Assembly (NCBI RefSeq): GCF_003334315.1
Contig: NZ_QOWR01000089.1
DNA length: 10,264 nucleotides
From: Escherichia coli
GTDB taxonomy: Bacteria > Pseudomonadota > Gammaproteobacteria > Enterobacterales > Enterobacteriaceae
Direction: 5' to 3' (one strand)
Made by a program: the position numbers and the translations under genes. Positions 6,893 through 9,874 of this stretch are shown one piece after another. The notes below the pieces were generated by a model. The model saw only the letters and a program-made list of their open reading frames with translations. It was not told the DNA's origin and ran no database searches. Within the stretch, counting starts at the first letter, position 1. Every line of letters starts with the position of its first letter.

Positions 6893-6902
6893 TATCCATT
6901 GT

Positions 6903-6944
6903 GAATGGTTCAAAATTGCTACAATTTTGAACCATTCCAGTTTT
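6903..6944 (+). terminator. Rho-independent terminator after yqeG (long perfect hairpin)
   Basis: Perfect 16-bp inverted repeat gaatggttcaaaattg / caattttgaaccattc (6903-6918 and 6922-6937) followed by cagTTTTcat, beginning 11 bp after the yqeG stop. Confidence 0.7.
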
Positions 6945-7291
6945 CATAATGTTCATTCGTTATTATTCCGCACTATCACTTCCCTCATCATATCCTAGTA
7001 TTATCAGTTATTTAAACACACAAAGAGATCTGAACATCTTAAATAAGACTATTTAAGATGCATAACTTAGATTCGCAAGATATCTTCCGGTCATTCAAAA
7101 ACAATTTGCGATATAGATATTCTCATACCATGAGATAGTTATCTGAACCACCCTCAACCAGGTAAGATTAAATCAGTGAAACATAATCATATTTAATAAC
7201 GAGAAATGCATTTTAAAATGTCTTAATCAGAATTATAGCAAATACAGATTAATCGCAATTTTTCCCAGCAAAATTACAAAATCATGGTGTA

Positions 7292-7320
7292 TTGACATCA
7301 TCAATCACCAATGAAATTAT
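7292..7320 (+). promoter_or_regulatory. Candidate sigma70 promoter for yqeH
   Basis: Perfect -35 TTGACA (7292-7297), 17-bp spacer, -10-like AATTAT (7315-7320). Sits ~30 bp upstream of the yqeH RBS agggagg. Confidence 0.35.
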
Positions 7321-7351
7321 GCAATTATATACGGATAGGGAGGTTCTTAAC

Positions 7352-7984
7352 ATGGGGCTTTGTAGTCGTTATAAAAGTCTTACATGCAATAGTTGCTCAA
7401 TGCATTGCCAAATAATGCCAGAAGAGTCACCGCGTTTGCAGTACTGCGCAAACTCGTGTTTTTGTATGTGGCCCGAAGAAAGTTCATATTTTAATCGTGG
7501 TGTGGTAGAAGGTATCTTAACAAAAAACCACAATGCGAGATTAAGCGGATATATTTTTGTCGATTTTTCAGTAAGTTTTTTACGTCTATTCCTTGAAAAA
7601 TACTGGATTGACTATCTTGCAAGTACTGACATGGGGATTGTTTTAGTCAGCGACCGCAATATGCAATCGTTAGCTAATTACTGGCGAAAACACAACTCAG
7701 CAATATCTGCTGTCATATATAATGATGATGGTCTTGATGTTGCCAATGAAAAGATCAGACAACTATTTATTGGTCGTTATTTATCATTTACCAGAGGTAA
7801 CACATTAACTCAGATGGAATTCACCATAATGGGGTATATGGTTTCTGGTTATAATCCATATCAGATTGCTGAAGTTCTGGATATGGATATCCGTAGCATC
7901 TACGCGTACAAGCAACGAATCGAAAAGAGAATGGGTGGTAAAATAAACGAATTATTTATTCGTTCACATTCGGTCCAACATTGA
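7352..7984 (+). CDS. yqeH: LuxR/FixJ-type HTH transcriptional regulator YqeH with Cys-rich N-terminus, 210 aa
   Basis: C-terminal LuxR-type HTH (LTQMEFTIMGYMVSGYNPYQIAEVLDMDIRSIYAYKQRIEKRMGG). Start assigned to the ATG at 7352 (RBS agggagg 8 nt upstream), not the TTG at 7292 used by the ORF track. Confidence 0.85.
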   Translation: MGLCSRYKSLTCNSCSMHCQIMPEESPRLQYCANSCFCMWPEESSYFNRGVVEGILTKNHNARLSGYIFVDFSVSFLRLFLEKYWIDYLASTDMGIVLVSDRNMQSLANYWRKHNSAISAVIYNDDGLDVANEKIRQLFIGRYLSFTRGNTLTQMEFTIMGYMVSGYNPYQIAEVLDMDIRSIYAYKQRIEKRMGGKINELFIRSHSVQH

Positions 7985-8018
7985 TACTCAACGACCAGCC
8001 AGAATCATACTCTGTTTA

Positions 8019-8048
8019 TACGGGCATTTATTGAAATGTCCGTATTTT
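8019..8048 (+). terminator. Rho-independent terminator after yqeH
   Basis: Stem tacgggcatt / aatgtccgta (one G-U pair), loop tattga, followed by TTTT (8045-8048). Confidence 0.6.
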
Positions 8049-8316
8049 ATAAATAGGCCGTCCCCTCAAGAGTAAACACCATAGTATTTAAAACCATCAC
8101 ACGAAAAATTCAGAAGCATTACGAAATATGAATTTACAAACAATAGTGGCATAAATGTTAACCATGTTAATTTACGTAAAGTTTTACGTTGCAACATTAA
8201 AGCCTCATTTCAATCATCATGATAAATATAAAATTAATATATATTTATGCCGTAAATACCAATATACTTAGCAAACTATGTGATTTCCATTTCGATTGAT
8301 TTAGTGTTATTGACGT

Positions 8317-9126
8317 ATGTACTGGATTATTAACGATAATATCGAGTTCTGGCCTGAGCACCGAAAATTAATATCGGTACATAACGCCGATCTTAACGTC
8401 GTTCTGACAACGCCAGCCAGTCGATGTTTATCACTTCTACTTGAAGCTTTTCCTGATGTGGTTGCACAACAAGATTTTTTCACCAGAGTCTGGGAAGAAG
8501 AAGGTATGCGTGTGCCTACTAACACGTTATATCAGAACATATCCATTATCAGACGCGGATTTCGCGCTGTTGGTGATACTACCCACTCGCTAATTGCAAC
8601 CGTGCCGAGAAGAGGATTCAAGATCCATAATGACATTAACATACAAAATCATGTAATAAACTCGTCAACAGACGCACATACACACAATGCCCCACCTGCC
8701 ATAAAAGTTAATGCGGGATACAAAGAGAGCATTGGTGGCGCAAAGAATTTCAATAACAAAATCCTCAAACATATAAAAAGTCATCTAATTATGTTGAGCG
8801 CATTTGTCATAGGCGCATATTCTGCATATTGGCTATGGAATAATAATCAACCGAAGCCATTTTTCAAGGATTACAAGACTGTTGCGGAAATTAATGGCTG
8901 CCATTTTAATGTAACAGAAGATACAATTGATGGGTTGAAAGAGTTCGATAAATATAAAACACGGATACTGGATTCGGGGATTAACTGTAAAAAACATCCG
9001 TGGTTATACTTCCCTCTTGCAAAATCCTCACCGGGGATGATTGTTATGGCATGCAATAAAAACTATAACCAACATGAAGTGGCAGACTGTTTAACCCTGT
9101 CTTATCGTGAGGTTAATCGTGATTGA
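8317..9126 (+). CDS. yqeI: ToxR/CadC-like membrane-anchored winged-helix transcriptional regulator YqeI, 269 aa
   Basis: N-terminal OmpR/PhoB-type winged helix with CadC/ToxR-like pattern (…FFTRVWEEEGMRVPTNTLYQNISIIRRGFRAVGDTTHSLIATVPRRGFKI), a single predicted TM helix (IMLSAFVIGAYSAYWLW), then a ~90-aa C-terminal domain. No strong SD before the ATG. Confidence 0.85.
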   Translation: MYWIINDNIEFWPEHRKLISVHNADLNVVLTTPASRCLSLLLEAFPDVVAQQDFFTRVWEEEGMRVPTNTLYQNISIIRRGFRAVGDTTHSLIATVPRRGFKIHNDINIQNHVINSSTDAHTHNAPPAIKVNAGYKESIGGAKNFNNKILKHIKSHLIMLSAFVIGAYSAYWLWNNNQPKPFFKDYKTVAEINGCHFNVTEDTIDGLKEFDKYKTRILDSGINCKKHPWLYFPLAKSSPGMIVMACNKNYNQHEVADCLTLSYREVNRD

Positions 9127-9601
9127 TTATAAAAAAAACTTATTATTTATTTTAGTTTTTATCAGTGGGTTTATTCTCTTCACTGTCTATTCTTACACTG
9201 CAGAAAAAATGATATATAACGAAACACGCACTGCAAATTGGGTAATTTTTAATGACCAGGGACGAGCAAATCTTACCATCGACTTTATGTATAACAAAAA
9301 AAATAAAACAGGAACTGTTGCGTTGAGTGGAACCTGGCAACAAGGTAACAGAGAAAGTAAATCAATACGGCGAAATATTGAATACACATGGATTGAAAAC
9401 TATGACACAGCCCATTTAACATCAAAGAAAGTTAATAAGTTTGAGATTATGGATCAAGTTGATGATGATAGACTTGCACAACTTATTCCTGATTTTTATG
9501 TCTTTCCAGAAAAAAGTGTAAGCTATAATATACTAAAGCAAGGTAAGCATGCTTTTATTTTGAGCATTGGTAACAGAGCAATAATGCATTGTGCAAGGTA
9601 A
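9119..9601 (+). CDS. yqeJ: Small membrane-anchored protein YqeJ, translationally coupled to yqeI (about 160 aa)
   Basis: GTG at 9119 preceded by gagg (9109-9112); overlaps the yqeI stop (9124-9126) by 8 nt. N-terminal hydrophobic anchor LLFILVFISGFILFTVYSY then a hydrophilic domain. The ORF-track start at 9107 is an in-frame upstream GTG, also possible. Confidence 0.72.
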   Translation: MIDYKKNLLFILVFISGFILFTVYSYTAEKMIYNETRTANWVIFNDQGRANLTIDFMYNKKNKTGTVALSGTWQQGNRESKSIRRNIEYTWIENYDTAHLTSKKVNKFEIMDQVDDDRLAQLIPDFYVFPEKSVSYNILKQGKHAFILSIGNRAIMHCAR

Positions 9602-9633
9602 ACTAAAATAGATAACAAAAAGATGGAACCTCG

Positions 9634-9714
9634 TTAATCATAAAACAATAAAATTAAATATTCTCGCAGTATATGGCAGTCTAAAGCATCAAAGATTTGA
9701 TCAACATCTTTCAT
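9634..9714 (-). CDS. yqeL: Small ORF (26 aa, MKDVDQIFDALDCHILREYLILLFYD), probably the small protein YqeL
   Basis: Minus-strand ATG at 9712-9714 preceded by strong SD AAGGAG (complement of 9724-9729) at 9-nt spacing; stop TAA at 9634-9636. Below the ORF-track size cut-off. Identity as yqeL recalled by position and length only. Confidence 0.45.
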   Translation of the reverse strand: MKDVDQIFDALDCHILREYLILLFYD

Positions 9715-9752
9715 TTTAGACATCTCCTTGCAATGTAAAATATCATGTATCA

Positions 9753-9874
9753 ACAACATCTGGTGCAAATCCATGAGTCGAACTCGACATTCATCTTAGC
9801 TCGATTATTATTCCTTCGTACAGTCGATGTAAACAATACAGAAAGAGGATTATTAAGAACCAGTTTACTCAGTG
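9753..9874 (-). pseudogene. Possible 3' remnant of an IS1-truncated gene (yqeK expected here by synteny)
   Basis: On the minus strand an open frame runs from the IS1 boundary (9874) for 39 codons ([40 protein letters not shown]) to a stop at 9753-9755, ~24 nt upstream of the yqeL RBS. No upstream start exists because IS1 abuts it. Identity unverified. Confidence 0.25.

Follow-up and report, generated by a model that had tools for sequence, protein, structure and literature searches.

An abrupt fall in G+C content beyond yqeG and the left edge of the ETT2 island on a stretch of Escherichia coli DNA

Does the sudden change to AT-rich DNA beyond the yqeG gene of Escherichia coli mark the edge of a horizontally acquired, silenced island, and of which island? 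The question is raised by a stretch of 10,264 nucleotides (nt) of E. coli DNA, referred to here as the window, for which the original prediction had placed a boundary between core DNA and accessory DNA associated with the second type III secretion system of E. coli (ETT2) near the yqeG terminator. Our analysis indicates that positions 7067-9874 are very probably the left arm of the ETT2 island (yqeH, yqeI, yqeJ, yqeL and a fragment of yqeK), which in most E. coli fills the interval between yqeG and the tRNA gene glyU, was acquired before E. coli and Escherichia albertii split, is silenced by H-NS/StpA and has since been eroded. The finding is correct but already known, as this is the established left edge of ETT2. 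Megablast comparison with 5426 complete E. coli genomes identified positions 383-9874 as the chromosomal arrangement ygeA'-araE-kduD-kduI-yqeF-yqeG-yqeH-yqeI-yqeJ-(small open reading frame)-'yqeK, at 97.5-99.2% identity.

The G+C content was 0.497 over positions 580-5408, 0.360 over positions 7352-9601 and 0.348 over positions 6893-9874, and the difference between the first two of these regions gave z = 10.8 in a two-proportion test. The island segment (7067-9874) had a G+C content of 0.351 versus 0.482 for positions 391-6892, the average of the E. coli genome being 50.8%. When a single change point was fitted to positions 391-9874 by maximum likelihood, the best location, 17 nt short of the yqeG stop codon, was after base 6875, with a G+C content of 0.483 on the left and 0.348 on the right, and with a log-likelihood ratio of 76.8 (mean of 2.7 and maximum of 7.0 in 200 shuffles). 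In consecutive 100-nt intervals the G+C content fell from 0.44-0.49 (6400-6899) to 0.29-0.34 (6900-7299), which places the transition at the yqeG stop codon and within less than 100 nt. Codon usage changed in the same direction. The G+C content at third codon positions (GC3) was 0.589 for araE, 0.551 for kduD, 0.563 for kduI, 0.496 for yqeF and 0.502 for yqeG, versus 0.336 for yqeH, 0.378 for yqeI and 0.279 for yqeJ; rare codons accounted for 1.5-4.2% of codons in core genes versus 7.1-9.4% in island genes; and an index similar to the codon adaptation index, with eleven neighbouring core genes as its reference, was 0.66-0.74 for core genes and 0.59-0.62 for island genes. The sharp drop from the core genes to yqeH onward, which had been reported by eye, was thus confirmed by the windowed G+C and codon calculations, and the outcome named as contrary to it, namely no significant difference between positions 580-5408 and 7352-9601, was not what these calculations gave.

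Some details of the predicted contrast have to be modified. The intergenic regions of the island are AT-rich as described (G+C content of 0.311), but they are not distinctive in this respect, as the core spacers in the window have a G+C content of 0.342, and the contrast between core and island is carried mainly by coding DNA, not by spacers. Runs of A/T of at least 6 nt are 2.5 times denser in the island than in the core (27.8 versus 11.0 per kb), in agreement with the many A/T tracts that had been pointed out, but the 83 runs observed do not exceed the 79 +/- 6 expected from mononucleotide shuffling, so the tracts follow from composition alone. The spacer between yqeH and yqeI, given earlier as 8054-8316, starts at 7985 and thus extends over 7985-8316. 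The AT-rich stretch does reach position 9874 within the window, but this end is set by a copy of the insertion sequence (IS) IS1 in yqeK, and in intact genomes the AT-rich DNA continues for approximately 25 kb to glyU.

Comparison with island-free genomes located the structural boundary. In strain SE15 (phylogroup B2), yqeG is followed 316 nt further on by glyU, encoding tRNA-Gly(CCC), and then by actS. The homology of SE15 to the window ended at 7066|7067 in both alignment and BLAST, and past position 7066 the SE15 sequence runs on into the 150 nt situated in front of glyU at the distal end of the O157:H7 island (position 29348 of the O157 locus). A 201-nt probe across this SE15 junction found the empty yqeG-glyU junction continuous in 1218 of the 5426 complete genomes, and positions 7067-9874 were present at least partly in 4119 of them, in each case on the chromosome, with no plasmid copies. 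The O157:H7 island is 27.5 kb long, has a G+C content of 0.358, is uniformly AT-rich (0.30-0.45), carries secretion genes of the type encoded by pathogenicity island 1 of Salmonella (SPI-1) and stops 150 nt short of glyU. Past the terminator hairpin of yqeG (6903-6937) there are about 130 nt up to the structural boundary, and the compositional change point precedes it by approximately 190 nt because the 174-nt spacer on the core side is itself AT-rich (0.305). The hairpin, the change point at 6875 and the boundary at 7066|7067 all agree with the predicted position of the core/accessory boundary near the yqeG terminator, and the two genome counts, the comparison with island-free genomes having been proposed as a check, establish that the DNA beyond it is accessory.

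The ETT2 island was described as extending from ECs3703 (yqeH) to ECs3737, adjoining glyU, with a length of 29.9 kb and a G+C content of 36.9% (PMC3977695, PMC11068852). The segment in the window matches this description in its position directly downstream of yqeG, in its first genes (yqeH, yqeI, yqeJ and yqeK, ECs3703-3706, with yqeK present as a 3' fragment only) and in its G+C content (0.351 here, 0.358 in the O157 island and 36.9% as published). The yqeH, yqeI and yqeJ genes have 98.9-100% nucleotide identity to E. coli genomes, and the proteins of the island genes are 98-100% identical to their orthologues in O157, K-12 and YD786. The segment differs from the complete island in that the window holds the first 2.8 kb only. 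On its left the island is flanked by yqeG, with the boundary at 7066|7067; on its right it is interrupted at 9874 by the IS1 copy that truncates yqeK, and glyU lies outside the window. In intact islands, a distance of more than 5 kb separates yqeK from the SPI-1-like secretion genes (eiv/epa/epr) on its right, and the window ends in IS1.

The prediction that the AT-rich DNA is silenced by H-NS was supported not by the sequence but by published chromatin immunoprecipitation (ChIP) and RNA sequencing (RNA-seq) data on the K-12 counterpart, to which the island segment is 99.3% identical. The spacer between yqeH and yqeI is one of 78 'promoter islands' in K-12, was bound by H-NS in all three ChIP studies compiled (ChIP-chip) and was classified as foreign by several predictors (PMC3661553). 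In RNA-seq analysis of K-12, counts for yqeH were approximately 27 in the wild type, 103 in the hns strain (log2 fold-change of 1.91) and 870 in the hns stpA strain, those for yqeI were approximately 70, 173 (log2 fold-change of 1.32) and 1100, and those for yqeJ were approximately 13, 42 (log2 fold-change of 1.62) and 550, which corresponds to increases of 2.5- to 3.8-fold in hns and of about 16- to 40-fold in hns stpA (PMC12460168). Similar increases of these three genes were reported upon netropsin treatment, the K-12 yqeG-ygeL fragment was cloned as a model for the in vitro reconstitution of H-NS hairpins, and sharp differences in G+C content were credited with setting the boundaries of H-NS domains (PMC12460168). 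The targets that H-NS binds and represses in strain 042 include ygeH and the ETT2 operons (PMC4210603).

Two points speak against transferring this silencing to the window, namely that the published data come from another strain and that the high-affinity consensus of H-NS, TCGATAAATT, was not enriched, with 16 matches versus 16.1 expected over the whole window when up to 2 mismatches were allowed. Four of these matches are in the island, three of them in the yqeH-yqeI spacer. Enrichment of TCGATAAATT is not strictly required for H-NS binding and, as it was not found, binding would be expected from general AT-richness. Silencing of positions 7067-9874 by H-NS/StpA is therefore best stated as probable by analogy, supported by the near-identical K-12 sequence. 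In the mechanism that we propose, the island DNA, being AT-rich, would be coated by H-NS with StpA as a back-up, the two proteins would bridge it into repressive hairpins that leave yqeH, yqeI and yqeJ nearly silent, and the G+C step at the yqeG stop codon would confine the silencing domain. The segment shares with known H-NS/StpA domains, such as the CHIN/CHID hairpins of Micro-C maps and the 'promoter islands', the combination of AT-rich acquired DNA and a sharp G+C boundary, and its own K-12 counterpart has been published as one such domain; it differs from them in that the high-affinity consensus is not enriched here.

Deletion end points were compared among genomes. Apart from 7066 in phylogroup B2, left end points were found at 7113 in Escherichia sp. 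MOD1-EC7003, at 7134 in strain 74-2 (at an IS1), at 7905 in S1-CAM-01-A (at an IS3), at 8142 in SMS-3-5 and at 9424. The empty site of MOD1-EC7003 has a different junction, at which positions 7067-7113 are kept and 80 nt of the glyU side, retained in B2 genomes, are missing; this difference implies that empty sites arise by deletion. The type strain of E. albertii keeps positions 7033-7123, which span 7066, and positions 7225-7313, beyond which lie a glycoside-hydrolase remnant and then glyU. ETT2 was reported at glyU in E. albertii, and its acquisition before the species split was inferred, by Ooka et al. (PMC4700944). These sequence comparisons indicate that island-free states arose repeatedly by deletion, with 7066 probably being the leftmost deletion end point, and they favour the view that the absence of the island from B2 is a secondary loss, the direction of this event being inferred. 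According to this scheme, the island would have entered the Escherichia lineage before E. coli and E. albertii separated and would later have been eroded by IS-mediated and other deletions, with the IS1 cut in yqeK in the present case and with the loss of the whole island in phylogroup B2, which would have created the junction 7066|7067.

An unlikely alternative to this scheme is that the empty junction of B2 is ancestral, in which case 7066|7067 would be the true insertion point and the island would have been acquired after B2 diverged. This corresponds to the view of Ren et al. 2004, as far as it is summarised in PMC7058095, that B2 never had the island, and it is consistent with the cleanness of the B2 junction, its occurrence in 1218 genomes and the position of 7066 to the left of all other observed end points. 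It is contradicted by E. albertii, an outgroup to all E. coli, both through the presence of ETT2 at glyU (PMC4700944) and through the island-side sequence that the type strain keeps across 7066, as well as by the differing junction of MOD1-EC7003; moreover, no target-site duplication flanking the island was found. A further question is whether the low G+C content indicates a foreign origin at all. A G+C content of about 35%, low GC3 and high rare-codon use would be the imprint of entry from a low-G+C source, and from these features we infer a foreign origin of the island DNA. Local function only, such as regulatory spacers, membrane or regulatory genes and AT drift of unexpressed genes, could in principle produce a similar composition: core spacers are nearly as AT-rich as island spacers (0.342 and 0.311), the gene for the membrane protein YqeG shows that a gene can lie 5-11 points below its neighbours in every genus, and the GC3 of yqeH is 0.50-0.57 in Citrobacter versus 0.34 in E. 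coli. Nevertheless, this explanation is highly improbable, as the drop is strongest at the synonymous third positions of all three genes (0.28-0.38), the low G+C content extends across 27.5 kb in intact islands, the island DNA is a presence/absence polymorphism and current substitutions are biased toward G+C, not A+T. When substitutions in four E. coli sequences were polarised with Escherichia sp. E1V33 as the outgroup, 47 AT-to-GC and 23 GC-to-AT changes were counted in the island, implying an equilibrium G+C content of about 0.5 compared with the current 0.35, versus 72 and 83 changes, respectively, in the core. The bias in the island fits slow amelioration of foreign DNA, with the qualification that the counts are small and that the outgroup is 23% diverged in the island.

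The remaining alternative concerns yqeH, yqeI and yqeJ, which might be an older, separate resident of the yqeG-glyU interval; the boundary would then mark this older islet and ETT2 proper would start to the right of the window. We regard this as possible, although the single-island history is preferred. Several observations argue in its favour and against a common acquisition with the secretion genes. The yqeH gene diverges at the core rate, being 88% identical at the nucleotide level to the copy in E1V33, compared with 87.7% for the core gene yqeG and 88.2% for kduD. The E1V33 genome has a mini-island of 4.9 kb (G+C content of 0.333) before glyU, with yqeH, yqeI, yqeJ and the HilA-family gene ygeH only and without secretion-apparatus genes. 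In Citrobacter amalonaticus and C. sedlakii, an orthologue of yqeH (78% amino acid identity) lies about 1.9 kb downstream of yqeG, in the order yqeG, a divergent yqeI/yqeJ-like pair on the opposite strand, yqeH, an rcnA-like gene for nickel/cobalt efflux and fimbrial operons of the chaperone-usher type, and neither secretion-system genes nor glyU were found within 10 kb at these loci. In C. sedlakii, yqeI (50%) and yqeJ (41-46%) are likewise present, with the gene order preserved. It follows that yqeH may not share the history of the secretion-system genes and may be older. In comparison with E1V33, yqeI and yqeJ have about 75% nucleotide and 70-72% amino acid identity, versus 95% amino acid identity for YqeH, a difference that points either to fast evolution of the yqeI-yqeJ pair or to its allelic replacement. 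On the other hand, the B2 deletion and the published definition of the island treat yqeH to glyU as one unit in E. coli, the G+C content is uniform (0.30-0.45) over the whole 27.5 kb, the arrangement in E1V33 can equally be explained as a deletion derivative, and the distribution in Citrobacter is patchy, with absence from species of the C. freundii group and also from Salmonella arizonae and diarizonae, a pattern that fits independent transfer into the same hot spot equally well. A more far-reaching version, according to which yqeH, and possibly yqeI and yqeJ, would be an old, vertically inherited neighbour of yqeG shared with the C. amalonaticus/C. sedlakii group instead of ETT2 cargo, with its extreme AT-richness in Escherichia gained or kept in place after engulfment by the H-NS/StpA domain, is more doubtful still; if true, the compositional 'foreignness' would be partly a consequence of silencing and not its cause. 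A separate history of the three genes leaves the interpretation of the compositional boundary unchanged.

Comparison of the single ETT2 island with other islands showed both similarities and differences. Like tRNA-linked integrative islands, such as the LEE at selC or islands with a P4-type integrase, it has a low G+C content, a tRNA neighbour, virulence-type cargo and variable presence; it differs in ending 150 nt from glyU and not inside the tRNA gene. It also differs in three negative results: neither the 27.5-kb O157 island nor the window carries an annotated integrase gene, direct repeats of at least 9 nt between the two island ends were not found, and no glyU-derived 8-mer, and thus no copy of the tRNA 3' end, was found at the left island end. 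The original insertion mechanism is not recoverable from an island in which neither an integrase nor direct or tRNA-derived repeats were found. Features that the ETT2 island shares with SPI-1 of Salmonella are the homologous secretion system, ygeH as a HilA-like regulator and silencing by H-NS; the chromosomal site is different, and yqeH, yqeI and yqeJ have no listed SPI-1 counterparts. The yqeG-glyU interval was also observed to be a variable hot spot across the Enterobacteriaceae. Loci with glyU within 10 kb have gaps of between 289 nt and 8.8 kb that are unrelated in content; in the majority of genera the distance to glyU exceeds 10 kb.

The features of the island segment (7067..9874), which was delimited by the end of SE15 homology and the genome counts, are as follows, with the coordinates of several features in the window mapped onto the annotation of YD786 or K-12. 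The yqeH gene (ECs3703; 7352..7984, plus strand; G+C content of 0.373, GC3 of 0.336) encodes a LuxR/EcpR-like helix-turn-helix regulator. The 62 nt upstream of it (about 7289-7351) are 76-79% conserved between E. coli and Citrobacter and include the island's best sigma-70-like match (TTGACA-17-AATTAT, extended -10 TG); this suggests that the promoter or leader of yqeH is conserved. Starting from an in-frame TTG codon at 7292, the yqeH product would be 230 amino acids long. The yqeH-yqeI spacer (7985..8316; G+C content of 0.304), corresponding to the 'promoter island' of K-12 (Table 1 of PMC3661553), is followed by yqeI (ECs3704; 8317..9126, plus strand; G+C content of 0.396), which encodes a CadC/ToxR-like winged-helix regulator, and by yqeJ (ECs3705; 9119..9601, plus strand; G+C content of about 0.32), which overlaps the end of yqeI and for which the family search gave no match. 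A small annotated open reading frame of the yqeL type with 26 codons (9634..9714, minus strand) was mapped from both the YD786 and the K-12 annotation, and the 3' fragment of yqeK truncated by IS1 (9750..9874, minus strand) was identified from the match to YD786, which stops within yqeK at 9874. An Rfam scan of the whole window identified no family at the gathering score.

The last core gene before the island is yqeG (5663..6892, plus strand), which encodes a permease of the serine/threonine transporter family (TIGR00814, E = 7e-155). A scan with the YqeG protein of one genome per bacterial or archaeal species recovered 80 loci, in genera including Escherichia, Citrobacter, Salmonella (arizonae and diarizonae), Enterobacter, Klebsiella, Kluyvera and Raoultella, and most of the 80 loci (Enterobacteriaceae) keep the arrangement kduI-yqeF-yqeG. 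Wherever a recovered locus has both genes, the G+C content of yqeG is lower than that of yqeF by about 5-11 points, so the value of 0.45 is, on these comparisons, intrinsic to the permease gene and not a sign of foreign origin. Membership of yqeG in the island, considered on account of this G+C content, was ruled out by the synteny across Enterobacteriaceae and by yqeG always being less G+C-rich than yqeF. The YqeG protein is identical (WP_000065950.1) in SE15 (B2), O157:H7, K-12, YD786 and F404 while the DNA differs by up to 3%, which indicates very strong purifying selection on this uncharacterised permease. Downstream of yqeG, the intrinsic-terminator-like hairpin (6903..6947, plus strand), with 16 pairs between 6903 and 6937 and a T-rich tail to 6947, is kept in the island-free SE15, and the core-side spacer (6893..7066; G+C content of 0.305) is retained by island-free genomes. 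This 174-nt spacer shows 89% identity between B2 and other E. coli, compared with about 97% for the flanking genes, and 69% identity to that of E1V33.

Upstream, the core block at 580..5408, the synteny of which is conserved across Enterobacteriaceae, comprises araE (580-1998), kduD (2313-3074), kduI (3104-3940) and yqeF (4227-5408), all on the minus strand, and is preceded by a 5' fragment of the core gene ygeA that is cut by IS1 (391..453, minus strand; mapped from the YD786 annotation). The araE start codon is the exact contig break in many public short-read assemblies (109 index blocks of the collection), which suggests a repeat or IS insertion directly upstream of araE in a widespread lineage; the contigs broken there reach only about 98.5% identity with the window.

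Both ends of the window are partial IS1 copies. The left copy (1..390, plus strand) is the 3' part of the element, with its terminal repeat GGTAATGACTCC... facing inward, and interrupts ygeA; the right copy (9875..10264, minus strand) is inverted relative to the left one and interrupts yqeK. Each is 390 nt long and begins at the same IS1 position, the two differ by 4 mismatches (99% identity), and the left copy is 94.6% identical to the IS1A of strain F404, with both copies at about 94.5%. With a G+C content of 0.54, the right copy ends the AT-rich stretch artificially at 9874. The left IS1-ygeA junction was absent from all 5426 complete E. coli genomes, with no place covering at least 80% of it, and no contiguous match to the right IS1-yqeK junction was found among them; 12 genomes had matches of at least 80% coverage to the right junction, all of which were two-piece joins, the eight listed spanning 217-694 nt. 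Two inverted IS1 copies with the same terminal repeat facing inward thus bracket positions 391-9874, as in an IS1 composite transposon, the outer ends of the two copies lying beyond the window; the sequences just inside the copies belong to their usual chromosomal neighbours, ygeA and yqeK, so that two independent insertions are favoured. Deletions associated with IS1 and IS3 removed most of the island in other E. coli (left end points at 7134 and 7905) and illustrate a route of attrition that probably also acted at the IS1 insertion in yqeK in the window.

In conclusion, the finding matters little beyond annotation. It makes small additions to what was known of ETT2, namely a base-level boundary at 7066|7067, island-free junctions that arose more than once by deletion, and a yqeH gene beside yqeG in Citrobacter without the secretion system. 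A naive compositional reading placed the left edge of a textbook island within about 200 nt, and the sequence-based inference of silencing agrees with the published H-NS ChIP, RNA-seq and Micro-C data of K-12.

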